Source: Chitinophagales bacterium (GTDB lineage Bacteria; Bacteroidota; Bacteroidia; Chitinophagales; JAUHXS01). Taken from it: 64,000 nt of DNA. Location of the stretch: contig CBDBZN010000018.1 in the NCBI GenBank assembly GCA_965213575.1, positions 16,598-80,597 on the forward strand, read 5' to 3'. Below the pieces are notes generated by a model that did not search any database, had not been told where the DNA came from, and saw only the letters and a program-made list of their open reading frames with translations. A program made the position numbers and the translations under genes. Position 1 is the first letter of the stretch. Each line of letters opens with the position of its first letter. This document shows, piece by piece, positions 4,412 to 56,424 of the stretch.

Positions 4412-5704
4412 ATGAAAAAGAGAAATATATTATTCGTTTTTGCAATTGCAGCAACGACAATGTTTTACTCCTGTTCTAAAGAAAAAGGATGCACAGATGC
4501 TACTGCTACGAATTTTGATAATGATGCAGAAGAAGATGACGGATCTTGTGTATATCCTGACAACAATTCCGGCAACCAAAAAGTTGAAAATAACATTACT
4601 TCAAACACTACTTGGAGTTCAGATGTTGTATACCAACTAAGTGGAAGAATTGTAGTAGAAAGTGGTGCTACTTTAACTATCGAACCGGGTACTATTATCA
4701 AAGCAGAAGGTGGCAAGGAGGCTAGTGCTTCTGTATTAATTATTGCCAGAGGCGGAAAAATCATGGCTGAAGGAACAGCTGCCAGCCCTATTATTTTCAC
4801 ATCTATATTAGACGAAATTGAACCGGGTGAAATATCCAGCCCTAATTTAGATGAATCTTTTAATGGATTATGGGGTGGCCTTATCGTTCTTGGTAATGCA
4901 ACTATTTCAGCTGATGCTTCTGAAGTGCAAATTGAAGGAATTCCCGTAACGGATGCAAATGGATTATACGGTGGATCTAATGACGCTGATAACTCAGGGA
5001 TTATTTCTTATGTGTCTATCAGACATGGAGGAACATTATTAGGCGAAGGCAATGAAATAAATGGACTTACCCTAGGTGGTGTTGGTTCAGGTACTACCAT
5101 TAATCATGTGGAAGTTGTTGGTAATTTAGATGATGGTATTGAGTTTTTTGGTGGAACAGTGAATGCTTCTAACTTATTAGTATGGTCACAAGGTGATGAT
5201 GCTATCGACATTGATCAAGGCTATAGCGGCACTATTAATAACGTTATCACAATAGGTAGTTCAAATTCTGATCATGCATTAGAAATTGATGGCCCGGAAG
5301 GTTCTTCTACTGGTAGCTTCACACTTACAAACGGTACTTTTATTGGATATAATGAAGACGGAGAATGTGGAGATGGCGGTGAATATGCTGACTTTAGAGA
5401 CGGTGCTAGAGGTAGTTTATCTAATTTATATTTTAAAAACTTCTGCGAAGATGCAGATTTTGAATTAGATGATGATGTTACTCATAACAATGCTGTAGCA
5501 GGAGATTTATCTTTTGCTGACATACAGGTTAATGTAAGCCACTTAACAGCAGGTAATATGACTATTGATGCTATATTCCAAGATAAATCAGCAATAGGTG
5601 GGTTTACAAACTTTAATGCTACTATTGTTACGACAGCAACAGTAGGGGCAAATGATTCTGAGTTTTCTTCATGGACATGGGCTTCTAAAAAAGGTGCATT
5701 TTAG
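4412..5704 (+). CDS. surface lipoprotein, probable partner of the downstream TonB-dependent receptor
   Basis: Lipoprotein leader MKKRNILFVFAIAATTMFYSC. Gly/Asp-rich repetitive body. Lies 97 nt upstream of the receptor gene on the same strand. Confidence 0.55.
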   Translation: MKKRNILFVFAIAATTMFYSCSKEKGCTDATATNFDNDAEEDDGSCVYPDNNSGNQKVENNITSNTTWSSDVVYQLSGRIVVESGATLTIEPGTIIKAEGGKEASASVLIIARGGKIMAEGTAASPIIFTSILDEIEPGEISSPNLDESFNGLWGGLIVLGNATISADASEVQIEGIPVTDANGLYGGSNDADNSGIISYVSIRHGGTLLGEGNEINGLTLGGVGSGTTINHVEVVGNLDDGIEFFGGTVNASNLLVWSQGDDAIDIDQGYSGTINNVITIGSSNSDHALEIDGPEGSSTGSFTLTNGTFIGYNEDGECGDGGEYADFRDGARGSLSNLYFKNFCEDADFELDDDVTHNNAVAGDLSFADIQVNVSHLTAGNMTIDAIFQDKSAIGGFTNFNATIVTTATVGANDSEFSSWTWASKKGAF

Positions 5705-26857: not shown

Positions 26858-27977
26858 TTATAACATTGATAAAGCTAATTGTTTATATAAGTTAACTAAT
26901 TTATCTGACTCTTTTGACCAATTGAGCTCATTTTTTACCAGCTTAGTGTTGGTTTTAAATAAACTGTATTGATAACTATCAGTTAATAATTTATTAATAT
27001 TTCTTATGAGTTCTTTAATATTTTTGGGATCATTGATTAGGACTGCTACCGGATACTGCTGATTTACTGCTACAAATTCAGGAAAGGCCGGTGATAAAGA
27101 AGGAAGTTCAGCCTGCATATAATCAAAAAATTTATTATTTAAAGAATTGTAATAACTCTTACCTAAGTTTTCCAAAAGATTAATTCCCAACCATGCATTA
27201 GATGCATATTGATGTAATTCATCATCATTCACCCATCCTAAAAATTCAATTTTATCAGCTAAACCTTTAGTTTTTACTAGTGCTCTTAATTCTAAAGACA
27301 AGTCTCCTTCTCCTGCAATTTTAAGCTTTAAAGGCAATTGTTTCATCGCTTCAATGATATATTCTAATCCCCTACCCTTATTTAATGCTCCCTGATAAAA
27401 CAAATACTTTTCATCTGTGGCAATAGGGATAATTTCTTTAAATTCAGGAAGATTTTTAATTACTTCAAAGTGTTTTCTATATTTCTGATTAAAAATGTTT
27501 GCTAAGCCCTCGCTTACAGTATAAGCTGCATCTACTTTTAGGAATTAAATATTGTTCCAATTTTTCCCAAAATTTTTGAACTGCCGGCCTTGAAATAACT
27601 TCCGGAACTTGAGAAAAATATTCATGAGCATCGTAGACAAGGATTTTATGTCTAAGTTTTGCAGCAAAATAAGCAGCTCCCAATGTATCCATATCTATTG
27701 CACAGATGATGTCAATGTCTTTCAAAAACAGTAAATGAAAGAAAAGCCTAATGTTGTATTCTATATAAAATAACTTTCCTTTATCATAAAAACATCTTAG
27801 TCTTTTTTGCTTATAGGAAGTTACGGTAATTGGCAACGACTTTTTTCGAATTCGCCCGGCCAATTCAACCTTAAATCCGGATCCCGCAAGCGTTTTACAT
27901 ATTCTATGCATCCGCCTATCATGCACCAAATCATTGGTAACTGTAAATATGATAGTTTTCTTTTTGAGTTTTGACAT
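26858..27977 (-). pseudogene. GT4-like glycosyltransferase split by a 1-nt frameshift (ORFs 27489..27977 and 26858..27403)
   Basis: N-terminal half TVTNDLVHDRRMHRICKTL...; C-terminal half ...GALNKGRGLEYIIEAM...AGEGDL... Removing one A from the minus-strand A4 run (plus T run 27536-27539) gives a continuous ...YLIPKVDAAYTVSEGLANIFNQKYRKHFEVIKNLPEF... Confidence 0.65.
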
Positions 27978-30812: not shown

Positions 30813-31007
30813 ATATTATCCCATTAAATTTTTATTAGGATATATACATTATTAATTTAAGCCTTATCACGGTTTAAGCTCACTTTAATTTTAACACTAT
30901 CACTATTGAATTTAACTAAGTTTAATTAAATTCTAGGTATGGCTAAACTGAAGATGTAATATAAAACAAAACGTAACTCATGCCTTCTTTTCACCCGAGA
31001 TTGTGTT

Positions 31008-32546
31008 CTACTTCTTAACAGATACATTAATATTTGTAATATTTACGTGAGGAGTTTCAATCAAGAAGTACTCCCTTTTATTATGCCTATATTTTAAGTG
31101 ATCTTCCCATATAAATTCAATAATATCAACTTTTTCACCCTCTGAAACTAAGTTAACTATAAAACTATGTCTGTTATTCAACTCTTTTTCAGAAACTAGC
31201 ATCAAAATATTTTGGTCTCTGTAATACTTGGCACTAAGTGTATCATTTATTGTGAAACTATCAGTGGCTTTACTGGATAGCAACTTACGTACATTAACTG
31301 AATAGAATTTGTCTTTTTCTTTATAAAAAGCAACTGATGCATCCCAGTTTCGATTATCAGGTTGGAGGTTGATCTTATACTGATTTAGAACACGGTCTCC
31401 ATAATTACTATGTTGATTATATGGTTTGAATTGTTCAAAATAGTTATAGGCTAGTAAGGAGATGCCTAATATATTTATTCCTAAAATAAGTTGAGGTTTG
31501 AATCTAAATATTTTAATAAATAACATATCGAGAATTTCCATCAAGGCTATAATTGTTAGTGGATAATATGGAAGTAATAGTCGATAAGTTGGGAAAGGCT
31601 TGCCTGAGATTTTAGCTACAATATATATGAGCAAAAATGAGATTAAAAATATTCGAGTTATTTTAAGGTGTTTAAATTGCTTGTAAAGTAACCATCCTAT
31701 AGTCACTAATCCCCCCATCGCTAATAGAAATAAAGAGCTATGACTTGGCATCTTTAGAAATGAAGAAAAACTGTTTATATAAGAACCAAAAACCGATTGT
31801 AAAAAGGTAATGTTATATGCTCTATATAAAGGTTTCCCTTCACTAGACACTTGACTTAAAAAGAATAAACAGTATAGAAAAAAGACAACCCATATTACTA
31901 GGTGTATTTTATTTTTCTTGATAAACCCAGCAATGTTTAATTTTAAGTCGACAAACACAAACTCTATGCCTATGGCAATCACAACAGGAATCAACCCCAT
32001 ATATGAATAAGTTGCTAATAATATAGAGTATATAGTGAACACAATATGTTTTGGGATATGGTCTCTTCTCTTAATAATATAAAGAGTTATCAAAACAATA
32101 CCAGCTCCAATACCATATCCTCTAGCTTGACTAAAAAAATCAGGTATTAAAAACCAGTAGAATACAAGAAGTCCAAATGCTATATATCTATTTTTAAACT
32201 CTCTTGTAATAGCTATGCTTACCATGAGGTAAATTACTAAGAATACGATATTAGGAAAACGAATAGCAAATTCTTGATAAGGGAAAAAATAAGCCGAATA
32301 GAATATTAAAATTGAATTTAAAGGATGGTTATTAGCAAGGTTCATTTTTAAGAACCTTCCAAACTCTTTTGCATATGCTCTATATGAGAATGCCTCATCA
32401 TAAGACATATCAGAAAACAATGCCCATGATATAGTAATACCTAGTGGTAGGAGTGCTACTATAAACAGAGCAACATCACTCTTTCTTTTGAAAGGATATA
32501 AATTTGAAGATTTAATTTTTGAAATAAGTAAATTCAATATCTTCAA
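31008..32546 (-). CDS. polytopic membrane protein, GT-C (ArnT/PMT-like) glycosyltransferase candidate
   Basis: 512 aa, about 12 hydrophobic helices, acidic DE motif in the first loop (SDMSYDEAFSY), soluble C-terminal domain. Confidence 0.5.
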   Translation of the reverse strand: MKILNLLISKIKSSNLYPFKRKSDVALFIVALLPLGITISWALFSDMSYDEAFSYRAYAKEFGRFLKMNLANNHPLNSILIFYSAYFFPYQEFAIRFPNIVFLVIYLMVSIAITREFKNRYIAFGLLVFYWFLIPDFFSQARGYGIGAGIVLITLYIIKRRDHIPKHIVFTIYSILLATYSYMGLIPVVIAIGIEFVFVDLKLNIAGFIKKNKIHLVIWVVFFLYCLFFLSQVSSEGKPLYRAYNITFLQSVFGSYINSFSSFLKMPSHSSLFLLAMGGLVTIGWLLYKQFKHLKITRIFLISFLLIYIVAKISGKPFPTYRLLLPYYPLTIIALMEILDMLFIKIFRFKPQLILGINILGISLLAYNYFEQFKPYNQHSNYGDRVLNQYKINLQPDNRNWDASVAFYKEKDKFYSVNVRKLLSSKATDSFTINDTLSAKYYRDQNILMLVSEKELNNRHSFIVNLVSEGEKVDIIEFIWEDHLKYRHNKREYFLIETPHVNITNINVSVKK

Positions 32547-32573
32547 ATATACATTTTATTATAAAAAGGGATG

Positions 32574-33248
32574 TTACAGCTTAATGATATATGCTAATGT
32601 GTAATATGGAGGTCTGTTTTCATGTGACTGACTGCTACCTCGATCGTTAATAGTTAGGCTGTGTGAATGGCTTCCTGTAAAATTTGTAGTTTGTGTTTGT
32701 ACTCCACTATTTCTTTGATTAGCTCCACTCTGGACAATATAGCCACCAGGGTTTCCAGTAGTAAAATCTCCCTCATCATTTACTGTGTGCGAATGATTTC
32801 CAGCAGAGTTTGTGTTTCCAGTATGATTGTGAGAAGGCATTTCATTTATAGATAAAGTATGTCGCTTTTCTCCACCATTATCTCCAATTGAGTTATAATC
32901 TGGATCGTTAGGGTTATACCCTACAATAAACCTTCCTCTTAAATCTGGTGTGCCTGATGAACCATTACATAAAGCCCATCCAACAGGAATGGAGCTCACA
33001 CTACCTGACCACATGATAATAGCACCAGTTGGAATACCTAAGCCTAGCCATTCAGAATTATTTCTTCCCTGAAGCTCACCTCCTGTCCATCTGATAGTTC
33101 CAGGCAGATTATTACTAGTATTGCCTACTCTTACAGCACCTGTGACATCTAATTTCTCTTGAGGGTTCTGATTTCCTATCCCTACATTACCATTTTGGCT
33201 ATAGGCATTGAGTGTGATGATCGTTAGTAGTATCGTGAGGTGTTTCAT
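32574..33248 (-). CDS. secreted phage tail-collar domain protein (MdpB-like)
   Basis: Leader MKHLTILLTIITLNAYSQ. Collar pattern GAIIMWSGSVSSIPVGWALCNGSSGTPDLRGRFIVG ... GGEKRHTLSINEMPSHNHTG ... GSHSHS ... ENRPPYYTLAYIIKL. Confidence 0.8.
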   Translation of the reverse strand: MKHLTILLTIITLNAYSQNGNVGIGNQNPQEKLDVTGAVRVGNTSNNLPGTIRWTGGELQGRNNSEWLGLGIPTGAIIMWSGSVSSIPVGWALCNGSSGTPDLRGRFIVGYNPNDPDYNSIGDNGGEKRHTLSINEMPSHNHTGNTNSAGNHSHTVNDEGDFTTGNPGGYIVQSGANQRNSGVQTQTTNFTGSHSHSLTINDRGSSQSHENRPPYYTLAYIIKL

Positions 33249-33305
33249 GGTTTTGCTTTTAGTTTTTAATTATTTCGTTCTTCTTTGTTAGTTGCTGCAA
33301 GCTAG

Positions 33306-33359
33306 GAATAGCTCGGACCTCCCATCTCCCTTCAATGCGACTCATCAGAGATTGTGTTC
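33306..33359 (-). repeat. 54-nt conserved element, copy A (immediately 5' of the tail-collar gene)
   Basis: 51/54 identical to 37654..37707. Minus-strand reading: GAACACAATCTCTGATGAGTCGCATTGAAGGGAGATGGGAGGTCCGAGCTATTC. Confidence 0.8.
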
Positions 33360-34892
33360 GACATCAGCTATCCAAGAAATGTTTAAGTTCCACTGATTAA
33401 CCTCTACACATTTAACAGAGTCACTAAATTGAGTTAAATTAACATTCCTATTAATAAACGCTTCTCCAGAATCGTTTTCATCATATTCCGTGATAATGAC
33501 TTTAGGGGAGAATGTTTCAATAACATCAGCATCGTTAAAATACTCTCTCCATATAGTAATAGCATAGGCTTTATTTTCCCAATTAAATGTTGATGCCCAA
33601 GCTCCCATCATTGGTTGAGAATGAAAACTGTATTCATTAAAATATTGATTAATATGTCTAACATAATATGTTCTATTATTTAAATATGAATGATATTGCT
33701 TTGCATTAAAACAGATAATACATATCATTAAACCACCTAGTAGACTTCCATATATAACTCTTTTACCTTGTTTGAGTTGATAAAATCTATTTACAAAAAT
33801 TTCAAGAAAATATAACATCAAATTAGCTATAATCAACATAGATGGAAAGAGAAGCCCTACTACGTATCTAGCAGGTAGCCACCATATAGCTATTTTATGT
33901 ATTTCAAATAAAAACCAAATAAAGATAAGTTCAAAAGCTCTTTTGAAGTTCCTATTATCAGTAGAAAAGTAAATAATAAAACTCAGTCCTATTGATAGAT
34001 AAATAGTATAAGTATAAAACTGTGTATATGCAGCTGCAAAGATATTATTGTAGTTTTCTACTATAATATTCCACATATCTGAGGTATGGGGAAATCTATT
34101 TGAAGTTTGATCAAGAATGACATAATTAAAAACACTCGTATAATTTCTATACCATAATAGGTAATACAATAAGCTCAACAGTCCAATGCCGAGCATATAA
34201 ATAATAGCTGCCGATAGTGCTTGCTTAATTTCATCAAACTTTTTATCAGTATGAATAATTAGTATTTTGATAATTCTAAAAGCCATATAAAACAATGGCA
34301 ATGGTACAATATATATGTATTGAATTTTAGTAAAATAGGATAGTGAAAATGTAAATGCAGTTAATAATAAATATTTGTTTTGTCTTTTGGAATCATACAT
34401 GTATAAAGAAAAAATTCCTAATACGATACAGCATATAGGAATCATTTCAGGCATAGCTGTATGTATAAATTGAAAAATATGAGCTTGAAAACCACCAATA
34501 AATAGAAATAGAATTATCATCCCTTTCCAGTAGTTATTAAATAACAATATAATACACGTTAAGAAAAAAAATAGCAACACAGATATTCTACTGATTTCCA
34601 TGCTAGTGCCAAATAATTTGTAGAATGGATAAAGAATTGCAGCAAAAGCAGGTGTCTTGATGAGATTATCGCTATCTGTCATTTTACAATGACCATGATT
34701 GATGTAGTTTCGTACTTGGCCAGTATTTAACCCTTCATCTGTATAGATTCCTCTGCTTAATGACAAATTATCTATGGGGTCAGCAGATAAGAAACTGATG
34801 TGAATAGTGCAATAAAGTATGACCAACAATAATCCAATTAGAAACAAATAATTCTGATTGATATTGATTAGCTGTTCTTTATTAGACTTCAT
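33345..34892 (-). CDS. polytopic membrane protein, GT-C (ArnT/PMT-like) glycosyltransferase candidate
   Basis: 515 aa, about 12 helices, first-loop acidic motif GIYTDEGLNTGQ, soluble C-terminal domain. The last four codons (EHNL) are supplied by the 12-nt motif. Confidence 0.5.
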   Translation of the reverse strand: MKSNKEQLININQNYLFLIGLLLVILYCTIHISFLSADPIDNLSLSRGIYTDEGLNTGQVRNYINHGHCKMTDSDNLIKTPAFAAILYPFYKLFGTSMEISRISVLLFFFLTCIILLFNNYWKGMIILFLFIGGFQAHIFQFIHTAMPEMIPICCIVLGIFSLYMYDSKRQNKYLLLTAFTFSLSYFTKIQYIYIVPLPLFYMAFRIIKILIIHTDKKFDEIKQALSAAIIYMLGIGLLSLLYYLLWYRNYTSVFNYVILDQTSNRFPHTSDMWNIIVENYNNIFAAAYTQFYTYTIYLSIGLSFIIYFSTDNRNFKRAFELIFIWFLFEIHKIAIWWLPARYVVGLLFPSMLIIANLMLYFLEIFVNRFYQLKQGKRVIYGSLLGGLMICIICFNAKQYHSYLNNRTYYVRHINQYFNEYSFHSQPMMGAWASTFNWENKAYAITIWREYFNDADVIETFSPKVIITEYDENDSGEAFINRNVNLTQFSDSVKCVEVNQWNLNISWIADVEHNL

Positions 34893-35028
34893 TCAAGGTA
34901 TATTAAAGACTCGATAATGACCATTACTGCTCTAAATTCTCAATTCTTAATGATTGTGGAAGAGTTGTATTAAGTTCTTTTATATCATTTACAATATATA
35001 ATAGAGCTGATTCATTATAGCTTAAGAC

Positions 35029-35542
35029 TCCGCTGGCGCCAGTTTGCAGCTGGTGCATTTCAGAAGTTTTGCTACAACGTGTGATCTATTCATTAAGATT
35101 TTCAATTTAAATTATTCCTTTACCTCCCGATTAATCTATAGCACTACTAAATTGCCACTTTTCCGGTTCACTTACAAATCCGGCTTCTACAGGATTAAAA
35201 TATATAATATATTCAAGCTTTTGGTCAATAACCTTATTACTCCATCATTCAAATTGGCTTATTATGATTTTGCCAAAGCTGATAAGATGTAACATTACTC
35301 TTTTTTTTTGCTGCTTTTTCATCATTCAAAGCATCCACTCTTTTTTATTTTCTTGAATATTTTCTTCTATATCCACTTTTATAGCTCTTGAAGTATAAGT
35401 TTTGAAACTCTTTAACAAATTAGCTTGTTGTTGATTTTTATCTCTAAATCATATAAATATGGCTGGGCATAATACACCAAGCAAATAATTTTCATGCCTT
35501 TTAAATCATTTAAAGCACCAGCTGCAAGCTGGCGCCAGCGGA
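35029..35542 (-). mobile_element. decayed REP-associated tyrosine transposase (RAYT, IS200/IS605-like Y1) flanked by 28-bp GC-rich inverted repeats
   Basis: IR-L 35029..35056 TCCGCTGGCGCCAGTTTGCAGCTGGTGC vs IR-R 35515..35542 (27/28 as reverse complement). Each contains the GCTGGCGCCAG(C/T) palindrome. Minus-strand frames give LFAWCIMPSHIYMI-stop (HUH-type MPxHxH motif) and KLEYIIYFNPVEAGFVSEPEKWQFSSAID-stop (YI..NPV.AGLV...W.[FW]SS end of RAYTs), broken by stops and frameshifts. Confidence 0.7.
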
Positions 35543-35566
35543 TATAACTCCAATATATTCCTTTAA

Positions 35567-36394
35567 TTAGAGATTGCGTTCTAATTTTTTAATTATCCAA
35601 ATATCCTGAGCCAGTGAAGGTTGTCTATCCTTTAAAGTAATATGTTCTAATATCTGTACGTTTTTAAAAAGTTGCTTCATGAATTTAGAAGGATGAAAAG
35701 CCGAAAACGTTCTATGGCCTTCTTTTACATTTCCTCTTACAATCAATTTCCCATTGTTAAAATCATCTAATTCCTTATCAGTAAACTTGATTTTAAAATT
35801 GTTTCCTTGTGTGGTTAAAAACATAATACCATTGGGCTTAAGAATCCGATTAAGTTCGTTGTACCAATCATAATGTAGCTGCTCAGATAAATGTGTAAAT
35901 ATTGAGATGCCGTATATTAAATCAATGCTATTGTCAGCATAAGGTAATTTGGCTTCTAATGAATTTTGATTAAACTTAACATTCTCAATGTTCTCTGAAC
36001 ACCATTTAATAGATTTTTGGTTATAATCTGTACCATAAAATTTACAGCCGTTATTAACTAAATTAGGCAAATGCCTAATTATTCTGCCTGGCCCACATCC
36101 CCAGTCTAAAATATTTTTATTTTTTAAATTTATATGTTTTTCTAGATGATTTATCAACCACTTTGCAGTATCTCTCCCTCCTTCATAGTACTTTTTATAA
36201 TTGAGTTGAAATGACTCATAAATCAAATAGTCTGGAGGAAGTATTACATTAAGATTTTTTGTTCTAAATTCTCTATTAACTTTTCTGTTTTGTACCTTCT
36301 GAATATGATATCTTACTAAATCAGTACCTTGAGTTAAACCCAATTTTCGTAGCATATTAGAAATTGCTCCTTTCTTCATAGAATATTTATTCAC
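35567..36394 (-). CDS. class I SAM-dependent methyltransferase
   Basis: Motif I ILDWGCGPGRI, post-I GTDYN, motif II-III IDLIYGISIFTHL ... LKPNGIMFLT. Confidence 0.8.
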   Translation of the reverse strand: MNKYSMKKGAISNMLRKLGLTQGTDLVRYHIQKVQNRKVNREFRTKNLNVILPPDYLIYESFQLNYKKYYEGGRDTAKWLINHLEKHINLKNKNILDWGCGPGRIIRHLPNLVNNGCKFYGTDYNQKSIKWCSENIENVKFNQNSLEAKLPYADNSIDLIYGISIFTHLSEQLHYDWYNELNRILKPNGIMFLTTQGNNFKIKFTDKELDDFNNGKLIVRGNVKEGHRTFSAFHPSKFMKQLFKNVQILEHITLKDRQPSLAQDIWIIKKLERNL

Positions 36395-36411
36395 CGGCTA
36401 ATTTATGCTTA

Positions 36412-37608
36412 TTATTTGGAGGTTTCTAACTCAATTATTCTAGTTTCTAAATTTTTGATATAAGATTGTTGTTCTTTTATAGAGTTGATTAATATCGGTA
36501 TTAACATATTATAATCTATGCCTTTTATATCTTCCATAGTGCGTACTACCTCAGGGATAATTATTTCTACTTCTTGAGCAATCAACCCAATATTTACTTC
36601 CGAAGTATTTCCAACTTCAGGTTTCCAATTATACGTAACTGGATTTAATAATAATATTTGAGATAATCCATATTCACATTTCTTAATATTCATCTTTAAA
36701 TTTCTATCTGAACCTTGTACTAAAATACCCGCTAACCATGCATTTCCCGTACCTTGTATATTAAATAATTCAGTTGTATTATCACTTCTCCTTACCGCGA
36801 AAGATTTTGAACTAGCATTAATAATACCTCCCACAACTAAAAGCCCTCCTGAGTTTAATGCTGAAGTATTAGTATTCCTAATTCTAGCCGCATATTCAGT
36901 AAAGTTTGCCTCTACTTCAAATGGATAAAATGGATTTGATCTTCCGATTGCAACTCTATCTGTTGAAGCATCTACAAAAAACAGATTAGGGGAATTATCT
37001 CCTTCTATTCTAAAGTCGAAATTACCTCCTGCATCATTAAATGTTGCATTACCTCTTACATCAAGAGAAGCAAGAGGATTATTCGTCCCAATACCAACTC
37101 TATCATTATCATTTACAAAGAGTCCTGCATTAGAACTCGTGGTATTCATGCTAATTTGAAAATAATCTGTTCCTGCATCTACTGTTTTTAATGAAGTCCA
37201 TATTTCATTACTACTACCAGTAAAGTTTCTTATTAGCACACCATATGTTCCATGATTTGGTCTAAGGTCAATGTATTGCCCAATTGTTTCAAAGCGAAAA
37301 TTATTGGTGCTTGGAGTTAGTTTTAAGTAGTGACTTCCATCAACGCTCATTCTAAAATTCTTTCCAGACGCTAAATCTAATCCCTCGGTTGGACTCTCCG
37401 TTCCCAAACCAACTCTACCATCATCTCTCACAAATAGCATTGAACCTCCACTACTATTAGTTACATTCAATGCGGAGGTTGAAGAGCTGGCACCTTCTCC
37501 TGTTATCTCTAGCTTTGAATCAGGATCGGTATTACCTATCCCTACATTGCCACTTTGGCTATAGGCATTGATGGTGATCATCGTTAGTAGTATCGTGAGG
37601 TGTTTCAT
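36412..37608 (-). CDS. secreted tail-fibre-like protein with C-terminal peptidase S74 (intramolecular chaperone) domain
   Basis: Leader MKHLTILLTMITINAYSQ. Repeated GNVGIGT..P...L.V-type units. C-terminal SDRNLKMNIKKCEYGLSQILLLNPVTYNWK...IGLIAQEVEIIIPEVV...DYNMLIPILINSIKEQQSYIKNLETRIIELE. Confidence 0.8.
   Translation of the reverse strand: MKHLTILLTMITINAYSQSGNVGIGNTDPDSKLEITGEGASSSTSALNVTNSSGGSMLFVRDDGRVGLGTESPTEGLDLASGKNFRMSVDGSHYLKLTPSTNNFRFETIGQYIDLRPNHGTYGVLIRNFTGSSNEIWTSLKTVDAGTDYFQISMNTTSSNAGLFVNDNDRVGIGTNNPLASLDVRGNATFNDAGGNFDFRIEGDNSPNLFFVDASTDRVAIGRSNPFYPFEVEANFTEYAARIRNTNTSALNSGGLLVVGGIINASSKSFAVRRSDNTTELFNIQGTGNAWLAGILVQGSDRNLKMNIKKCEYGLSQILLLNPVTYNWKPEVGNTSEVNIGLIAQEVEIIIPEVVRTMEDIKGIDYNMLIPILINSIKEQQSYIKNLETRIIELETSK
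37420..37608 (-). repeat. shared 5' coding block (about 63 codons) of the tail-fibre paralogs, copy 1
   Basis: Highly similar to 39599..39787 (MKHLTILL...GNVGIGNTDPDSKLEITGEG.SSSTS.LNVTNS..GSMLFVRDDG). The first 26 or so codons are also shared with 33171..33248. Confidence 0.75.
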
Positions 37609-37653
37609 GGATTTTTGGTTTGACTATTAGTTTGATTCGTGGTTATAAAATAT

Positions 37654-37707
37654 GAATAGCTCGGACCTCCCATCTTCCTTCACTGCCACTCATCAGAGAT
37701 TGTGTTC
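37654..37707 (-). repeat. 54-nt conserved element, copy B (immediately 5' of the 398-aa tail-fibre gene)
   Basis: 51/54 identical to 33306..33359. Intergenic here. Confidence 0.8.
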
Positions 37708-37730
37708 TGTCTTTTATTGGATTTAAATAG

Positions 37731-38573
37731 CTAAAGGTTGAACCTCATTCTGATTTCACCATTATTAGCAATATAAAATTTATCACCAGCAGCTATAGTA
37801 CCATCTGAATTGATTCTTATATCAATGGGGTTTTCATAAGTTGGGGAGGGGAGTAAAAAAGAAATAGTGTCTCCTGACTTTATATCATAAGTTTGTAAAT
37901 CATTGGGTGCATAAAACTCAATCTCTAAAGAAAGGTCAACATTGCCAGTATTAATAAACAGCGGATTATCCAAAGGAACTCCCTGATAATGGTTGCCTTG
38001 TCCTTCTGATTCTTGTGAATAGTAAATACCATCTTCAAAGAGGTCTATATCAATATCATTATTCATCAATTTGATATCTGCCAATTTTACAAATGTTTCT
38101 AAATGAATGTCTACTGCTGTAATAATTTCCTTTCCATCACTATCTGTTGTTTTACCAGATATATTTATAATTCCTGTATTTTCTGCCATTGGCATTACTT
38201 CAGCTTCACCAGTTCCATTAAGTTGTCTACCATGTATTAATCCTATTTCCATAACTGATCCGACTGTTAAGCTATTTAGTTGAGGTATTGACTGAGGGAA
38301 ACATTTGAAATCTTCTCGATTTGAAGTGATTTCTATATCTGTAATAGGAGTTTCTCCAACGTTTGAAAGAGTAAAGTAAAACTCTTTACTAGCTTTTAAA
38401 TCGCCAAGATCAAAGTCAATTTGATCTAAGGTGTTACTAATTTTATTACTTGAGCCTGTATATTGTATTTCAAAAGCTCCAGACTTAGCAGATTGCATAT
38501 TATCAACTTCATCCTTCTTATTACAAGCTATTAAGCTACATAAGGTAATTGCAAATATTATTAGCTTCTTCAT
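37731..38573 (-). CDS. lipoprotein, unknown function
   Basis: Leader MKKLIIFAITLCSLIAC. 280 aa, beta-rich composition. 2-nt gap to the upstream tail-fibre gene. Confidence 0.5.
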   Translation of the reverse strand: MKKLIIFAITLCSLIACNKKDEVDNMQSAKSGAFEIQYTGSSNKISNTLDQIDFDLGDLKASKEFYFTLSNVGETPITDIEITSNREDFKCFPQSIPQLNSLTVGSVMEIGLIHGRQLNGTGEAEVMPMAENTGIINISGKTTDSDGKEIITAVDIHLETFVKLADIKLMNNDIDIDLFEDGIYYSQESEGQGNHYQGVPLDNPLFINTGNVDLSLEIEFYAPNDLQTYDIKSGDTISFLLPSPTYENPIDIRINSDGTIAAGDKFYIANNGEIRMRFNL

Positions 38574-38575
38574 AA

Positions 38576-39787
38576 TTATTTTGATTTAAGTTCTAAAATT
38601 TCATCTTCTAATTCTTTAACCTTACCATTCAACTCTTGTACAGCGTTGATTAGAGCATAGAAAAGACCATCTTGATTATAAGTTAAGACTTCTGCTTTAT
38701 AGATAGGTTTAACTTCAAACCCACTTTCTTGTATGGTATATACAGAAGCAGAATCTGAGCTACTTTCAATGGTATCTAAAGTAATAATAGTATCATATAC
38801 AGTTTGAATATTTCCACTAAAGCTACTAAGGTCTTTTTCTTCAATATGTACAAATTTCTTCTCAACACAATATGGAGCAACTGTTTCTATATCTTGAGCT
38901 ATCAAACCAATATACGTTTCATCTGTTGGCATACCACATAATCCATTATATTGATAATATTTAGGATTGATTTGGTTGATTATGTCCAGTCCATCTGTAA
39001 AATCTACTACATTAGCTTTTAATCTAGCATCACTGGCAGAATTTACCCATGAACCTCCTCCAGGTTTCGCTGCATTTCCTAAACCCAATTCTAGAGAATA
39101 ATTATCAGTCACACTGCTTACTCTAAATGCGATTCGTCCATTTTCATTAATTACTAAATTTTTATTACCCGTAAAGCTATTAACAACTTCAAAAATAGCT
39201 TTAGGATTCCCGATACTGACTGGATTGCTGTATGTTACCTTAATGGTTGGTTCAGTAGTAGCTTGAGAAGATGCTTTTATTTCAAGCTTTGCTGTAGGGT
39301 CTAGTGTACCTATCCCAACATTTCCACTAGACCTAACAATCATTTTATCCTGATTATCAATCCTAAAATACAAATGTCTATTTAATGCAGCATTTAAAAA
39401 AGTAGAGCCTGTGGATTGCTGTAATAATGCATAGCTGCTAGGAGTACCTTTTAGGGAGTTATGTGTAAAAACCGAATATAAAGAACTTTGATTCCAATTG
39501 CCTAAATAAACATTTCCAATATGTGCACCCAGTCCTTGAGCTGAACCTAATACGTGAAGTTTTTCATCTGGTGAGGTTGTCCCAACTCCCACATTCCCAT
39601 CGTCCCTCACAAATAGCATGGAACCTCTATTACTATTAGTAACATTCAATGAAGAAGTTGAAGAGCTGGTACCTTCTCCTGTTATCTCTAGCTTTGAATC
39701 AGGATCGGTATTACCTATCCCTACATTGCCACTTTGGCTATAGGCATTTAATGTGATGATCGATAGTAGTATCGTGAGGTGTTTCAT
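38576..39787 (-). CDS. secreted tail-fibre-like protein with C-terminal peptidase S74 (intramolecular chaperone) domain
   Basis: Leader MKHLTILLSIITLNAYSQ. C-terminal SDARLKANVVDFTDGLDIINQINPKYYQYNG...YIGLIAQDIETVAPYCV ... LINAVQELNGKVKELEDEILELKSK. Confidence 0.8.
   Translation of the reverse strand: MKHLTILLSIITLNAYSQSGNVGIGNTDPDSKLEITGEGTSSSTSSLNVTNSNRGSMLFVRDDGNVGVGTTSPDEKLHVLGSAQGLGAHIGNVYLGNWNQSSLYSVFTHNSLKGTPSSYALLQQSTGSTFLNAALNRHLYFRIDNQDKMIVRSSGNVGIGTLDPTAKLEIKASSQATTEPTIKVTYSNPVSIGNPKAIFEVVNSFTGNKNLVINENGRIAFRVSSVTDNYSLELGLGNAAKPGGGSWVNSASDARLKANVVDFTDGLDIINQINPKYYQYNGLCGMPTDETYIGLIAQDIETVAPYCVEKKFVHIEEKDLSSFSGNIQTVYDTIITLDTIESSSDSASVYTIQESGFEVKPIYKAEVLTYNQDGLFYALINAVQELNGKVKELEDEILELKSK
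39599..39787 (-). repeat. shared 5' coding block of the tail-fibre paralogs, copy 2
   Basis: See 37420..37608. Confidence 0.75.
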
Positions 39788-39850
39788 GGGTGGGGTTTAA
39801 TTGTTTTATTGTTTTCAGTTTGTTTCGTTTGCTCACAAGCACCGCTATCG

Positions 39851-49200: not shown

Positions 49201-52200
49201 TGCTATACATTAACGTAGAGGGATCTAAAGACATGTTAATTCTACATTTAAAGCTATTATTTTGATTATTTACAATATCAATAATTACATTATTTCCACT
49301 CAGAGATGCAACCTTCCACCGATAAAGAATAGTATTGGCCGGATTGGAGGTGGGCTGAGGAATACTTTCATATAAGTCTGTACTAAATTCTTCTAATTCG
49401 TTCACAATGAAATTCCTTATCATACCACGCTTTTCCTTGATCACTGCCTTCATAAAATATTCGAATTGAATGGCAATAGGGCATTTACCGCATTCTACAA
49501 ATAACTGCTTTTGCACTTCTTTGCCCATACATTGTACTACATCTGCATCATTATCATACACGTCTACAGATCCGGGAAGGCCGTCATTAGCAGAAGGAAA
49601 GCGTTTGGCTTTATCTTTATAGAGGCTGTATTGATCTACATTACAAAATTGGCTTTCATTGTAAAATTCGCAAGAAGGGCAATCTTCTCCCATAAAATTG
49701 TATTTACAAGGATTAAACTCTTGGGAAGCTGTGCCGATACAGGCGTTATAACAACCGTTTACGATAGCATATTGCTGCTCTTCTTCTTCCATATATTTCC
49801 CTTTCAATTTGGCATAAAATCCATTGAAAATAGCCCACGCTTCATCATTCATAGTTGCTATGGTGATTGGATTGCTCGGCAAGCAATTAAGCATTTCATC
49901 AACCTTCTCTTTAAATTTATTGCACTTAGCAGACAAATAAGCCATCTCATAGATACTGAAATACCCTGACGTTCCATTGTTATTGTCGTAAAAATAATAG
50001 TCACGCATATCAGTAATCATCTCGCTTTTACGATCAGCTCCTTCTCCTCCGGGAGCAAAAAATGGGTCTACATTAGAAATGTTATCCGGGAGGTCGTTAG
50101 GAAAATCGCCTCCGGCATTTAAGTCTAATGGATTCCATAAATGTGCGTCACCGCTTCCTGATGGGTTCTCATCTTGGTTGAGTAGTGTCCAGTCATAATC
50201 ATTGCTAGTTGTATTTAAATTACACCAAGTATAATAACAGTACTCCGGGTGGTATGTCACTAAAGATTTTGCCCAAGAGGTGTCGAATTTTTCTATGAAT
50301 TCAGCTAAAGTGAGTTGATCCGGAGATACTAAATTACCTTCTGCGTTTAAAACCATGGCCAACTCACCATTTTTGTCCACGTATGGCGTACCGGGGTGTT
50401 GAAAATCATAATCCGGATTGGGAAATGAATTATTGATATTTAATAAGTTGATTTGCGAATCAGGTAAGACATAACTCTGTGTAGCTTGATCAAAATTAAA
50501 AGGTGCATACTGGCCACCCGGGCTCACATCTTTTAATAATGCTTTGTAGGCGGCCTCACAAGGATGGACTTGTTCATCACACAGCTTATCGCAATTTTTT
50601 TGTAACTCATTGTAGCCTTCCAAAGTAAGATATAGATAATTAGGATCGTAAGCAGAATGGCCGGGAGTCGCTTTGTTGATATTGTTGTGATCTGTATAGT
50701 TTCCCAGTTTTGTATTACAAGTGTTACAATCTTCTTCACAAGCTGTCAAGTCTACATATGATAATCTATCTTGATAAAAATCATAGAAACTTTTCGTACA
50801 ATTCGATGTATCTTCTAAATAAGTATTGGCATAGAAATCGGCTGCATCTTCTTTTATATGCAGTATTTTTGTGATGCTGTAATTGCCGGTAGCTAATGAA
50901 AGTGTAAAAGGTATATTAGTAGACGGTAAAGGGGCATTACAGGTTAAATCAAAAGGATTAATGCTCCCAATCATTCTTGTTTGGTTGGTAGGATCTACTA
51001 ATTCAGTACCGCATTCATCTTTAATACTCAGCGTCAAGCCATATACACATTCGGCGCAAACACTAGCGGGTAAACATTCCAACGTAAACTCTTGAGGGGT
51101 AACCTCGTATTCAAAATTATAATTACCTGCAGTAACAGCTAAAAACTCTCTAGACAATACAATATCATTGCCGTTTACTATATTTTCATTACCCGGATCG
51201 GTGGTATTTACACCATTTATTAAGTTGATATTTTTAGTAAGTGTTTGAATGGAAGGTAAATCATCCAAATCTTCTCTGGCTTCATCAGCCATAGCTGTGA
51301 TAATAACTTTTCCTTGTTGATCAAGATAACTCACGCTTTTTTGTCCATTAGCATCCACTACTAAATTTTTCTTGTAATGAGCTACCCAGGCTGCATCACT
51401 ACCTAATAAAGGATCCAACTCTTCTTGAGCCGGCTTGCCGTAATAATATTTTGTCTCGTGCTCACTATTTAATTGATAAGTTGCCCCTACTCCACCTTGC
51501 CGCCTGATCCTTCCGGTATTATCCGGTGTAAATTCGATATGTGTAAATGGATAACCTTCGGCATTTGGTAAGAGTGCTTGGTAATCATCCTGGTCCGGGT
51601 TGTTAGGAGAGTAATATAAAGCTGCTCCTGAGGTGTTATTCATCGGGCCTATTGCCGCTTCACAATCAGTTGAGCCTTCTACATCGAAGTTGTCTTTACT
51701 ATAAGGCACGTTGCCGGAAGGTGATAAGTTGAAATTTTCATAATACTTAATATCATTTTCATTAGTCACATTCGGAACGGACAATGCTTGAACAGCCGCT
51801 CTACCTTGATGGTCATAAAAAGTTTCACCTATTATGGTTTGATCTTCAGTGTTTAGTTTGCTCACTACTTGTCGGTTACGCAAGCTACCGTCAAAATAAC
51901 TGATGCTTTCTTTTCTCTTGCCTTCTTCAGCAAAATTGGCATTGTACTGCCAATTAAACTTTTGCTCATGGCCGGCAAAATCGACTTCGCCCATTGTTTC
52001 ATCAAAGAAACTATACACGCCATTAGTTAAATCACTTACCTGCCCTTTGTCTACCGCTGACCATGCTCCATATATTAATTTGCCTGGATTATTAATATCT
52101 TTTCCTACTCCTCGTACTCTGTATAAAATGTATCCCCTTTCAAAGACTAAAGGAATAGTATATGATTGTTCTCCGGTGCTGATCCGGGTGCTGTTATATT

Positions 52201-52921
52201 TAAAGTCAAAAGGAATTGCATTAGCCGGCTTTGAAGTAAGTATTTGTCCTGTCAGTAAATCAACATTCCCTACATTATCTACCCAAAGCCATTCCAGGTC
52301 AAAATATTCAGCGCCATCTAAATAACTCCAAGCAAATTCTAGCTCTCCAATGCCGTTTTCACTGTAATCAATAGAAGTGGTAGGCGAAGCGGTAATAGTT
52401 GTTACTATTCCATTAGGATCGAAAGCATATATTCTTTCAATATGCATCTCTGACGCTAAGTAGGCATTAGGAAGCGGATTAATTACATTTATTACCTCAA
52501 TAAATACGCTATGGCCTCCGGTAAAAATAAATATATCCATAGCATCTGATATACTATCCGCTGAGGGATTGTATAGTAATTCTAATGTTTGGGAAAGTGT
52601 AGTAGTACTAAAATTTTCGTCTTCGTAAGTTATTTCAAGTTCAATAATCATCGTATCGGCAGCTACTAGTTGATTGTAATTAGCGTCAATGCCTAACATG
52701 ACTTTATTAATAACTGATAAATTATTGAACTCTGCCCTCCACTGAGGATCGTTTTGCTGCATATAAAAATATTGGTGATCAACTAATTCAAAGACGAGGT
52801 CATTATCAATTTCATTCGCATATATTTGAGTGCGCAGTGCTTCGGTACCTGCATAAGACTGCCCGATAAACATCAATAGTAAACCAATAAATTTATATGC
52901 TTTGAAATATTTTTCTATCAT
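42539..52921 (-). CDS. giant RHS/YD-repeat polymorphic toxin (3460-aa ORF as read)
   Basis: Sec-type leader MIEKYFKAYKFIGLLLMFIGQSYAG. DUF6443-like segment (...KRKESISYFDGSLRNRQVVSK...FYDHQGRAAVQ). Cys-rich middle. Many YD repeats (YSYDQAGNLIQ, YQYNSLNQLIEQNTPDGGTTVFYYDELGRLI, YSYDIHGNV, YRYDQLNRI, LQYDANGNI, YDYDAVGNL, FEYDGNGNRI). LamG insert. YYPFGM, core end SPYAYVFNTPIQATDPDGN, then a variable tip. Confidence 0.9.
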   Translation of the reverse strand: MIEKYFKAYKFIGLLLMFIGQSYAGTEALRTQIYANEIDNDLVFELVDHQYFYMQQNDPQWRAEFNNLSVINKVMLGIDANYNQLVAADTMIIELEITYEDENFSTTTLSQTLELLYNPSADSISDAMDIFIFTGGHSVFIEVINVINPLPNAYLASEMHIERIYAFDPNGIVTTITASPTTSIDYSENGIGELEFAWSYLDGAEYFDLEWLWVDNVGNVDLLTGQILTSKPANAIPFDFKYNSTRISTGEQSYTIPLVFERGYILYRVRGVGKDINNPGKLIYGAWSAVDKGQVSDLTNGVYSFFDETMGEVDFAGHEQKFNWQYNANFAEEGKRKESISYFDGSLRNRQVVSKLNTEDQTIIGETFYDHQGRAAVQALSVPNVTNENDIKYYENFNLSPSGNVPYSKDNFDVEGSTDCEAAIGPMNNTSGAALYYSPNNPDQDDYQALLPNAEGYPFTHIEFTPDNTGRIRRQGGVGATYQLNSEHETKYYYGKPAQEELDPLLGSDAAWVAHYKKNLVVDANGQKSVSYLDQQGKVIITAMADEAREDLDDLPSIQTLTKNINLINGVNTTDPGNENIVNGNDIVLSREFLAVTAGNYNFEYEVTPQEFTLECLPASVCAECVYGLTLSIKDECGTELVDPTNQTRMIGSINPFDLTCNAPLPSTNIPFTLSLATGNYSITKILHIKEDAADFYANTYLEDTSNCTKSFYDFYQDRLSYVDLTACEEDCNTCNTKLGNYTDHNNINKATPGHSAYDPNYLYLTLEGYNELQKNCDKLCDEQVHPCEAAYKALLKDVSPGGQYAPFNFDQATQSYVLPDSQINLLNINNSFPNPDYDFQHPGTPYVDKNGELAMVLNAEGNLVSPDQLTLAEFIEKFDTSWAKSLVTYHPEYCYYTWCNLNTTSNDYDWTLLNQDENPSGSGDAHLWNPLDLNAGGDFPNDLPDNISNVDPFFAPGGEGADRKSEMITDMRDYYFYDNNNGTSGYFSIYEMAYLSAKCNKFKEKVDEMLNCLPSNPITIATMNDEAWAIFNGFYAKLKGKYMEEEEQQYAIVNGCYNACIGTASQEFNPCKYNFMGEDCPSCEFYNESQFCNVDQYSLYKDKAKRFPSANDGLPGSVDVYDNDADVVQCMGKEVQKQLFVECGKCPIAIQFEYFMKAVIKEKRGMIRNFIVNELEEFSTDLYESIPQPTSNPANTILYRWKVASLSGNNVIIDIVNNQNNSFKCRINMSLDPSTLMYSNGTTASWTQLIEIVSIKHKVSGSNFDFILRGKFSKLINGQRDTIEGVASGTSTCFEVGGCPNVEVCEKAAVANDFQNLLNLLLKDRNSLNVTQGLAVEPYNKIMTNNLRFAGAGNYSYSGTTSLNVLDAEIQYSGQTSCEIDMTIITPNYNFNNITDFFDIQPSSMQQATTNAFTIKAHASDGAIIELQGSAGCYNFGFDCAEYVAVEGCNVEKQLFAGTQTVYEENFNNIPDENNPPFNTFTSTLVDDCDYLCTNGFQHSFINNTNTCTFDGQTVFLGSDPSTFFHVTHASIVPPFNNTTNTSQNDFAVFEKTIVVENGCEYDFNIRSMLTYYANTCVQPFINIYFNNQSFLNIYLPSNDIGSWQNYSKIWIADNNNLTIRIELEYGLCFNGDSLENSSNTCNINYASGFALDDIKLVKTASSVVECIKNPLCDTPRTTPALNINAALACKETLLEQARYDAEQAYQYYADSVLADFQALYRKNCSNTEEIYTVNYSEKEFHYTLYSYDQAGNLIQTVPPAGVNRITDVNTLNQINNYRLDPVNNNPVDPGHTFKTNYQYNSLNQLIEQNTPDGGTTVFYYDELGRLIISQNAKQALHEPDPQYSYTQYDNLGRIIEVGEIETSTDPASLITGGSQIPYQDEFIANFLPSGTQTEVTKTTYSQPSTLFISQNNLRNRVSSVSIDNDGDDNPEYLTHYSYDIHGNVKTLVQQNPTLTAINEEFKKIDYEYDLVSGNVNFIYYQGGMPDAFHHQYCYDADNRITQVLTSKDGICWERDAKYFYYQHGPLARVEIGEDKVQAYDYAYTLQGWVKNVNSNALNPPYDPGQDGYADSTNNLNSYIAKDAYGFSLGYHNNDYTAISGNQQFLTSITALPNIGTAAPNLYNGNISHMVTSLATPILTGGAGSGSGGDEKTTQLHAYRYDQLNRIKQMKAYADFDFENNVWGATEDDRYKTNLQYDANGNILRLKRNATATNLDMDQMGYHYITGTNKLDYVEDTIINSNWMMDIENQDPGNYDYDAVGNLTADFSEDIESIDWTVYGKVKEVKRIMGSSKPDLTFEYDGNGNRIRKIVKSDPTDPLTWITTNYVRDASGNILATYRGDAPAGTYEVNEHMIYGSSRVGVKKQRAASSKLTRGDKSYELTNHLGNVLAVVTDKKLAIISQTEICSSLSFDGNDDYVRVPYAPNQNLGTGNFTIEAWIKADSATTTPYGIINNIDGGNLGYKIFVNPISSTIGVQISESTVITGATYIKDNSWHHIALVRSGIDVTLYIDGSIDGSTISSTDLTSTEDIIIGSFNTNGFVPFLGGIDEVRIWNIERSQTEIQNSMSTKLTGAEIGLLAYWNFEEGSGQVVQDLSPNGFDGTLGLSSAVENNDPTWTTDGQACILNLSYAPDIVSTQNYYPFGMLMPTCETPIESYLATMEDDREEIERAQFYESYDSINITAMSQMNHTDSLDKLKVLALDKDGSAAQGLRKTVPVLKGDSIVMQAYAKFLPNLSKDKSKEMSLPIMAILAPLTYLTPIGEYGMQVAKLIPPILNLPLPLLGGDSYEGTPTAYLNYRLYNKDSVLIDSAQIAVSEEAMDGAKPSGKAKRDTLDDTHDHLMLTKGIKEDGYIEVYLSNTSDQEYRVYFDDYQITRMENALCEADELRYPFGFNGKENLNEVYSTTGGVVDLGERWLDTRLGRTPTSDDMARMYPDQSPYAYVFNTPIQATDPDGNVVIFINGFNGGSGGNPSYWGGFDKQVQQVIGDYSARYYDGSSGGIGSTTFNALEGLIEGGIAGSFFGNPILGAVGGTLFELSANSNVNSIKRIQAGKAMGQAQAAEIFDNLSEGETIKIVTHSMGTAYSRGFVQALSEYAESQGIEKFQLEYQIDLAAFQGSSLPKPTEVKQLDFKSGDIDNVANGILGRLIGGTGSSNIPGGRKLKVAKGTGHGIGEFTTGDIPTLNRGNSRALKTFLNTRETTIDFQENNPGLVLIIVCFSMLFSSCRRNERQKQKLQEMRESIPDVMGEAEKRRDSMLLAFTFNQFINKDYYELHYLHQYRKKGYQVNIYVDDIFYSPDSLKLFAFIIVEMPTAAEWNQNSLEDSTKQWYYASYDWIGFRENTNEIWKLYPFHKNRSNGYATYETVQFNLRDYYFDEIKDAIHFKTNCSLVDTCFWTEEKIWKKAEFVEGYYDFQIAPGYYDYQIKGKEEWFKKQWNTRPLSEFLLPIPDVEYPEELLKKY
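43298..44053 (-). other. C-terminal toxin tip: alpha/beta-hydrolase (lipase/esterase-like) domain
   Basis: Begins right after DPDGN. VVIFINGFNGG (oxyanion-region-like) and the nucleophile elbow VTHSMG (encoded at 43679..43693) fit a GxSxG serine hydrolase. Confidence 0.55.
44264..45008 (-). repeat. 745-bp direct repeat, main-gene copy
   Basis: See 41398..42142. Confidence 0.9.
45121..45697 (-). other. LamG / concanavalin-A-like lectin domain inserted near the end of the RHS shell
   Basis: LSFDGNDDYVRVPY...GNFTIEAWIK...NSWHHIALVRSG.DVTLYIDG...IIIG....F.G.IDEVRIWN..RSQTEIQ is the Laminin_G_3 pattern. Confidence 0.65.
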
Positions 52922-56379: not shown

Positions 56380-56424
56380 ATTTGAATTGGAGTTTTGTGA
56401 AGTATAATATAGTTTTCCAATATT

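Follow-up and report, generated by a model that had tools for sequence, protein, structure and literature searches.

Three genes with phage tail-fibre tips and a shared signal peptide in a Chitinophagales chromosome: a likely set of host-encoded, exported fibres

The 64,000-nucleotide (nt) stretch of a Chitinophagales bacterium analysed here (positions 16,598 to 80,597 of contig CBDBZN010000018.1 in assembly GCA_965213575.1; hereafter the window) carries a cluster of minus-strand genes at positions 31008-39787, three of which encode proteins that resemble phage fibres and begin with almost the same leader. We favour the view that these are host genes for three short, trimeric, Sec-exported fibres, in which the distal ends of phage tail fibres have been joined to a Bacteroidota signal peptide; we regard this as likely. 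The locus joins a known kind of system, with a cassette layout that is locally unusual, and it offers a compact example of a single export module combined with three distinct phage-derived binding tips. All seven open reading frames (ORFs) that a first-pass annotation had placed in the cluster are present at their coordinates on the minus strand, and the three that it had read as phage-fibre-like have Pfam matches to fibre families, one to Collar and Gp10_C and two to Peptidase_S74.

The smallest of the three, at 32574-33248 (minus strand), encodes a protein of 224 amino acids (aa), which we call the collar fibre, with a signal peptide, a single VGIG...P motif, and a knob of the collar/C24/gp12 type that begins at about residue 72. 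It scores 26.2 bits against Pfam Collar (PF07484; cut-off 24), the match anticipated for it in the first-pass annotation, and 42.4 bits against Gp10_C (cut-off 27; E 1.7e-10); its match to the phage family phrog_1800 has E 6e-35. Residues 78-222 align to residues 135-274 of C24 (PDB 6ov6; E 5e-20), which is described as the receptor-binding tip of the long tail fibre of a temperate phage that infects the flavobacterium Bizionia argentinensis (PMC11821841). The knob also has a match in Tenacibaculum phage pT24 at 39% identity. The structure of C24 is reportedly that of Pellizza et al. from 2020.

Three HxH motifs lie in the knob (HNH at 140, HSH at 152, and HSH at 194); motifs of this type hold metal ions in the fibre tips of T4. 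The collar protein resembles C24 and T4 gp12 and gp10 in its Collar and Gp10_C matches and in its HxH motifs. C24 and gp12, however, belong to fibres of the virion, which are produced in the cytoplasm, whereas the knob in the window is joined directly to a signal peptide and one capping motif, with neither shaft nor attachment domain. The IMG/VR contigs contain more than 580 relatives of the knob (37-51% identity), each of which forms the C-terminal end of a 190-2067-aa ORF. These viral ORFs carry no signal peptide, and in some of them a DRVGVGTTAP..K motif precedes the knob.

The two larger genes, at 36412-37608 and 38576-39787 (both minus strand), encode precursors of 398 and 403 aa, here S74a and S74b. 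Each has a signal peptide (residues 1-18 in S74b), three VGxG...P...L motifs, and an S74 domain of the intramolecular chaperone/autoprotease type. As the first-pass annotation had proposed, both match Pfam Peptidase_S74 (PF13884) toward the C-terminus and lie well above the curated cut-off of 22 bits: S74a scores 55.7 bits (E 6.1e-15, residues 300-356) and S74b 48.2 bits (E 1.3e-12, residues 252-308). The catalytic Ser-Lys motif, defined as S-D-x-x-x-K (PMC10769870), is intact in both, as SDRNLK at 300 in S74a and as SDARLK at 252 in S74b. Both also match PHROG tail fibre families (E 6e-27 for S74a and 6e-23 for S74b), and in the PDB their S74 domains match a long tail fiber distal subunit (6f45) and MyRF (7dc3). 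The VGxG...P...L motifs resemble the beta-helix capping loops of the S74 fibres described in PMC10769870.

The three fibres align to the C-terminal ends only of long phage profiles (positions 358-545 of 545 in phrog_1800 and 1292-1563 of 1567 in phrog_5668), and, judged by sequence, they are homologues of phage tail-fibre tips. Such clear homology, along with a decayed transposase in the cluster that attests to past mobile-element activity, would also be expected if the genes were leftovers of a prophage, a tailocin, or an extracellular contractile injection system (eCIS), or if they supplied fibres to a particle encoded elsewhere. We consider this decidedly unlikely. All three proteins have a Sec signal peptide, which is incompatible with the assembly of a particle in the cytoplasm; the fibres of tailocins, eCIS, and phages need none. 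They lack the N-terminal attachment parts of the long phage ORFs, and members of the same family elsewhere are single genes in housekeeping contexts. Moreover, when the ORFs of at least 120 aa across the 64 kb were scanned with Pfam and PHROGs, no capsid, terminase, sheath, tube, baseplate, or integrase gene was found, so that structural, packaging, and integration genes are lacking from both flanks of the cluster in the window (31 kb and 24 kb). The initial reading of the locus, signal-peptide-bearing fibre-tip proteins encoded in the chromosome with no phage structural or integration genes around them, is borne out by these results.

The feature that unites the three host fibres is their front end. 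The common leader is ATGAAACACCTCACGATACTACTA, with the consensus MKHLTILL.(I/M)IT(L/I)NAYSQ.GNVGIGN..P..KL..TG; the three genes agree at every one of their first 24 nt, where the number expected by chance is 0, and 31 of the first 37 positions are identical in the three proteins, in line with the near-identity of the leaders reported in the first-pass annotation. In the S74 pair the similarity extends further, with 174 of 189 nt identical over the first 63 codons (92%) and only seven synonymous differences. This block had previously been described as near-identical; the block itself is real, and the wording slightly generous. Beyond about codon 65, identity between the two genes drops within some 15 codons to 40-50% at the nucleotide level and 20-40% at the amino acid level, and over their whole length the two proteins are 38% identical. 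The collar gene is identical to either S74 gene at 72 of 78 nt over 26 codons and is divergent after that.

Because the identity at synonymous sites is high and the break points are sharp, the similarity goes beyond what constraint on the protein would explain, and this mosaic profile points to a 5' block that was recently exchanged or duplicated, by duplication or gene conversion of the 5' module. A metagenome scan with the shared leader gave no match. In the mature proteins, the shared stretch amounts to about 20 aa in all three fibres and about 45 aa in the S74 pair.

The leader ends in AYS/Q, a sequence that fits the Q-rule for substrates of signal peptidase I in Bacteroidetes (PMC5837995). 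We propose that this enzyme would cut after AYS and expose Gln19, which would cyclise to pyroglutamate as the Q-rule has it. The C-terminal chaperone of the S74 fibres would nucleate folding of the trimer and cut itself off at Ser300 in S74a or Ser252 in S74b by means of the Ser-Lys dyad; the collar protein would fold into a knob like those of gp12 and C24, stabilised by metal ions that its HxH motifs may hold. The mature fibres may serve as ligand-binding or adhesive proteins of the cell envelope. In this proposal a common front module, consisting of a boundary motif (described below), the 5' untranslated region, the signal peptide, and the first VGIG capping motif, would have been kept near-identical by recent duplication or gene conversion, with three very different binding parts behind it.

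Several points weigh against this proposal. The signal peptide was called by eye and with a crude hydrophobicity rule rather than with a dedicated predictor. The mature segment that the fibres have in common is short (about 20-45 aa), so that an anchoring role for it is speculative. None of the three fibres has a lipobox, and searches with Pfam and NCBIfam found in none of them the C-terminal sorting domain of the type IX secretion system (T9SS; PF18962/TIGR04183); with neither, the fibres have no known route across the outer membrane and could stay periplasmic. Finally, each fibre gene is followed closely by the next gene, with gaps of 2, 17, and 27 nt, and this tight spacing could reflect functional pairing of fibres with the lipoprotein or the methyltransferase encoded downstream.

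The fibres have many relatives. A search with S74a returned 1819 proteins at E <1e-5 among the candidates scored, of which the best are only about 30-34% identical, and many are from Bacteroidota and carry the name 'tail fiber domain-containing protein' (PF13884). By sequence comparison, the three fibres belong to this very large, known, but functionally unstudied family. To our knowledge, no Bacteroidota member of it has a tested function, and Bacteroidota genomes hold thousands of members with a signal peptide. Among the 108 top matches that start with Met, 61 have a signal-peptide-like start by the crude rule; an AxA-Q-type site is present in 25 of these 61, and in 10 of the 25 it is directly followed by VGxG. 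The layout of signal peptide, Gln, and NVGIGT..P..KL recurs in many of the Bacteroidota relatives, which are also like the fibres in their repeats, their S74 domains, and their non-prophage contexts; the first 65 or so residues of S74a and S74b correspond to one unit of a repeat that is present four times in one relative (P0013). Five family members that lie on long contigs have housekeeping neighbours (LpxC/LpxD, PGK, Omp85, and AlaRS-type genes) and no phage neighbours.

Clustering of S74 genes is seen elsewhere too. In a metagenome-assembled genome (MAG) of the Chitinophagaceae (L172), two S74 genes lie 5 kb apart, but these share their C-terminal part, including S74, and not the 5' end, the reverse of what we find here. 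The fibres also differ from relatives in which a T9SS sorting domain follows the S74 domain (P0010, P0061, P0077, and P0114); the presence of this domain indicates that some members, at least, are exported to the surface. In these four relatives, cleavage at S74 would oddly leave the sorting signal on the chaperone fragment and not on the fibre. As a separate observation, two S74 members are preceded by a gene of 74-78 aa for a GerE/LuxR-type helix-turn-helix protein (L088 1698-1922 and L089 2031-2267), a possible dedicated regulator.

The closest studied analogue appears to be the mosaic adhesive trimer (MAT) fibre family of Bdellovibrio bacteriovorus, whose members pair variable tips with a constant N-terminal domain behind a signal peptide (PMC10769870). 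In that family an S74 domain with SDxxxK is found in 13 of 21 members, and both self-cleavage and surface location have been shown experimentally (PMC10769870). The two sets are alike in being host-encoded, with several paralogues per genome that combine a signal peptide and a constant N-terminus with variable C-terminal tips, and in having beta-helix capping loops with a motif of the V-G-x-x-x-x-P-x-x-x-L type. S74a and S74b share the SDxxxK motif with many MAT members; self-cleavage, which was demonstrated for MAT, would by analogy be expected here.

The differences are also substantial. MAT proteins are about 1000 aa long and have a conserved, beta-rich N-terminal domain of about 130 aa, whereas the fibres in the window are 224-403 aa long and share about 20-45 mature residues; compared with the published description of MAT, they lack the domain of about 130 aa that follows its signal peptide. 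Their paralogues are clustered and identical at the DNA level at the 5' end. They come from another phylum, and a predatory lifestyle is known for Bdellovibrio but none is known here. The surface location of MAT fibres has been shown, whereas for ours a place in the envelope is a prediction. Given that the N-terminal domain characteristic of MAT is missing, the fibres may work in a MAT-like way but would not be members of the MAT family. With its three tips behind one export module, the locus is a convenient entry point to where fibres go that have neither a T9SS nor a lipoprotein signal, to their ligands, and to the reuse by bacteria of phage receptor-binding domains.

Two membrane proteins are encoded among the fibre genes, MP1 (31008-32546, minus strand, 512 aa) and MP2 (33345-34892, minus strand, 515 aa). 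The first-pass annotation had taken both to be like glycosyltransferases of the C superfamily (GT-C), with DE motifs in their first loops, and our models agree. The AlphaFold (AF2) model of MP2 has a predicted local distance difference test score (pLDDT) of 86.8 and a predicted template modelling score (pTM) of 0.90; in Foldseek its top 21 PDB matches are all GT-C proteins (STT3, PglB, ArnT, ALG9, AftA, Pmt4, and Emb), with template modelling (TM) scores of 0.5-0.57. For MP1 (pLDDT 83.5, pTM 0.85), the top matches are again GT-C proteins (EmbC, ArnT, STT3, AglB, and AftB), with TM scores of only 0.35-0.42, and the model has a distinct C-terminal beta-sandwich. D50 and E51 in the first loop are invariant in the MP1 family, and D52 and E53 are at least 90% conserved in the MP2 family; hhalign aligns the two families with a probability of 71% and places the two D-E motifs opposite each other. 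Together, the Foldseek matches and these conserved, aligned D-E pairs lead us to assign both proteins to the GT-C fold, an assignment that rests on predicted structures.

MP1 and MP2 thus resemble ArnT, PglB/STT3, PMT, and Emb/Aft in predicted fold and in the acidic D-E pair in the first periplasmic loop. They differ from known GT-C enzymes in lacking a direct match to a profile hidden Markov model (HMM) and, in the case of MP1, in the C-terminal beta-sandwich. Neither protein has a direct match in Pfam or NCBIfam, and a PDB sequence search with profiles of both families returned none. Weak Pfam matches appear in relatives: in the MP2 family, which is rare, with 14 detectable relatives, PMT matches in four of the 14 and PMT_2 in two, and in the MP1 family, with more than 1000 relatives, PMT_2 matches in two of 40. 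A search for GT-C HMM hits had been suggested as the check on these proteins; with no match for the window proteins themselves and weak ones in their relatives, it would have wrongly rejected a fold that the models uphold. This fold-level assignment adds two GT-C families that current HMM libraries overlook.

The cluster also encodes a predicted class I S-adenosylmethionine (SAM)-dependent methyltransferase (35567-36394, minus strand), which begins 17 nt after the S74a stop. In line with the first-pass annotation, it matches Pfam Methyltransf_11/25/31 (E about 1e-15, and about 6e-16 for Methyltransf_11/25), with sub-threshold matches only in NCBIfam. That annotation went on to suggest that the GT-C enzymes and the methyltransferase act on the fibres, so that all would form one module whose products are glycosylated or methylated in the periplasm. 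The genes are on one strand with short gaps between them, we found no minus-strand terminator-like site between them, and both MP1 and MP2 have predicted folds of enzymes that act on the periplasmic side. Their relatives tell a different story, and we consider a single module unlikely. When one genome per species was scanned, 161 relatives of MP1 came up, the best (32-39% identity) in a Bacteroidota MAG and a Crocinitomicaceae MAG; we kept the best 80 loci with 10-kb flanks and searched them by tblastn with the window proteins. A collar gene was found in none of these 80 loci and an S74 gene in one, and none of three independent contexts of MP2 relatives contained fibre genes, so that the co-conservation of fibres and membrane proteins that had been put forward as a test was not seen.

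Some MP1 relatives have GT2 or polysaccharide genes as neighbours. One lies 4 nt after a GT2 gene (L170), a pairing like that in donor synthesis of the GtrB/ArnC type, and another (L171) lies beside a cluster with a flippase (Wzx), Wzy, GT1, and UDP-glucose dehydrogenase. Neither GT-C family has a relative in viral contigs, and the mature parts of the fibres contain no D-(S/T)-(A/I/L/V/M/T) sequon, the signal for O-glycosylation in Bacteroidota. Furthermore, in a metagenome contig from ENA (L001), an MP2 relative (1464-2930) is followed by an MP1 relative (2927-4681) with a 4-nt overlap and no fibre genes. Given that the two families are adjacent there, their adjacency is probably older, and the collar gene looks as if it was inserted between them. 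The GT-C genes most likely act on envelope polysaccharide, with the fibres as neighbours by insertion; in the proposal we favour, cassettes of one fibre gene and one tightly coupled downstream gene would have been inserted next to and between a pre-existing GT-C pair. The tempting story of adjacent GT-C enzymes that glycosylate the fibres is thereby removed.

The arrangement of the cassettes is marked by three elements that the first-pass annotation had overlooked and that are new in this analysis: a boundary motif, a 72-nt repeat, and a transposase remnant. The 11-nt motif AACNCAATCTC occurs six times in the window, all within 30997-39874, where 0.14 copies are expected; none of 100 shuffles reached six. 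Five of the six are on the minus (coding) strand and lie at cassette boundaries. The first (AACTCAATCTC, 39864-39874) is inside the end of an immunity-like lipoprotein gene, 77 nt before the S74b ATG. The second opens the shared 5' module upstream of S74a (37609-37707), 25 nt past the stop of the lipoprotein gene described below and 88 nt before the S74a ATG. The third (AACGCAATCTC, 35570-35580) forms the last codons of the methyltransferase gene (ERNL*), and the fourth (GAACACAATCTCTGA) overlaps the last codons of MP2 (EHNL*) and opens the shared 5' module upstream of the collar gene (33249-33359), 100 nt before its ATG. The fifth (AACACAATCTC, 30997-31007) directly follows the MP1 stop, at the end of the array.

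These copies split the region into four units of 2.1-2.35 kb: S74b with the lipoprotein, S74a with the methyltransferase, the transposase remnant with MP2, and the collar gene with MP1. The lipoprotein is a predicted one of 280 aa (37731-38573, minus strand) that starts with MKKLIIFAITLCSLIAC, in which we recognised the lipobox LIAC by eye; it begins 2 nt after the S74b stop, has no Pfam, NCBIfam, or PHROG match, and has no relative in viral contigs. We considered the spacing of about 2.2 kb as a sign of a fixed repeat unit and rejected it; because the contents of the cassettes are unrelated, it is probably coincidental.

One copy of the 72-nt repeat lies before the collar gene and the other before S74a (37636-37707); the two copies are 85% identical, and their homology begins exactly at the motif and runs into the leader. 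At its C-terminus MP2 is 6-7 residues (ADVEHNL) longer than its closest relative, and the start of the repeat encodes this extension. The methyltransferase and MP2, two unrelated proteins, both have E(H/R)NL ends for which the motif codes. Rfam and RNA folding gave no sign of a conserved RNA in the 72-nt repeat. The 21-nt core of the upstream repeat has no exact copy in viral or metagenome (JGI) contigs, and the motif followed by TGA is absent from the 171 loci that we fetched. We also ran a promoter scan with the sigma-70 consensus, which is uninformative for Bacteroidota.

The third element is a degraded REP-associated tyrosine transposase (RAYT) pseudogene at 35029-35542 (minus strand), in the 674-nt gap after the methyltransferase gene. 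It is frameshifted; its stitched frames match NF047646 (E 1.1e-10), and 31-nt inverted repeats that are 94% complementary lie on either side of it. A related AGCTTGCAGC stretch is also present upstream of the collar gene. In our inverted-repeat search only the RAYT arms were convincing. A 33-nt inverted pair that contains the motif (76%) was no better than background pairs, and we rejected the idea of an invertible segment.

The simplest account of the array is tandem spread of the 5' module, and the motif may be a site for a regulator or for recombination. The first-pass annotation had suggested that the shared 5' blocks could allow heads to be swapped; with direct repeats, recombination would remove the genes in between and would not switch heads reversibly. 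For the same reason, the inversion shufflons described for tail-fibre genes (PMC9881135) are no model for this locus. The confinement of all six copies to the cluster, five of them at cassette boundaries, the start of homology between two cassettes exactly at the motif, and the E(H/R)NL ends of two unrelated proteins could instead be taken to mean that the motif is the site of a dedicated recombinase and that the array is integron-like and actively exchanges fibre cassettes. We see this as very improbable, since no integrase or recombinase gene was found in the window, RNA folding showed no conserved attC-like hairpin at the boundaries, the repeat that bears the motif was not found in the 171 loci, viral contigs, or JGI metagenomes, and simple tandem duplication of the 5' module suffices. 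An equally long shot is a system that diversifies one envelope fibre, in which cassettes bounded by AACNCAATCTC would be gained, lost, or exchanged behind a constant export and anchor module, and the tips, together with the nearby Rhs locus, would recognise target cells.

This Rhs locus bears on one further alternative, which is that the fibres are accessories of the polymorphic toxin, for instance in recognition of target cells, and may be co-transcribed with it. The array starts 63 nt after the immunity-like gene of an orphan Rhs cassette, on the same strand, and the first boundary motif lies in the end of that gene. Five other family members that we examined have no Rhs neighbour, however, and a strong hairpin separates the immunity-like gene from S74b (39788-39863, CTCGCAAGCAC...GTGCTTGTGAG; -21.5 kcal/mol, z = -5.3); it directly follows the motif and no T-run comes after it. 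Nor is a mechanism known that would let Sec-exported fibres assist Rhs toxins in Bacteroidota, and we think a role of this kind improbable. The immunity-like protein matches no Pfam, NCBIfam, or PHROG family, and viral contigs hold no relative of it.

Outside the cluster, the window is ordinary chromosome of a marine-type member of the Bacteroidota. Its GC content is about 30-39%, mostly 31-36%, with no step at the cluster, and the 64 kb hold no tRNA genes. The remaining genes include recF, pyruvate dehydrogenase E1, CorA, a TonB-dependent receptor, two-component systems, ABC transporters, a T9SS cargo protein, a 3460-aa Rhs protein, and the orphan Rhs C-terminal cassette with a Peptidase_M91 toxin. 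At 26858-27977, a GT4-type glycosyltransferase appears to be split into two ORFs, with Glyco_transf_4 at 27489-27977 and Glycos_transf_1 at 26858-27403, and may be a frameshifted pseudogene.

The orphan cassette (40507-42264, with the Peptidase_M91-like toxin) contains about 290 aa that are a nearly verbatim copy of the main 3460-aa Rhs protein (42539-52921). The main Rhs ORF reads on, without a change of frame, into a signal peptide of lipoprotein type (LVLIIVCFSMLFSSC), a sign that an immunity gene may be fused to it or start inside it. Five large minus-strand ORFs (879, 377, 720, 727, and 206 aa) follow one another at 53740-62507, upstream of the Rhs gene, and have no Pfam or PHROG match except for a PKD domain in the first. 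An OmpH-like gene lies upstream of this run, which may represent an uncharacterised operon for export or assembly of the Rhs protein.

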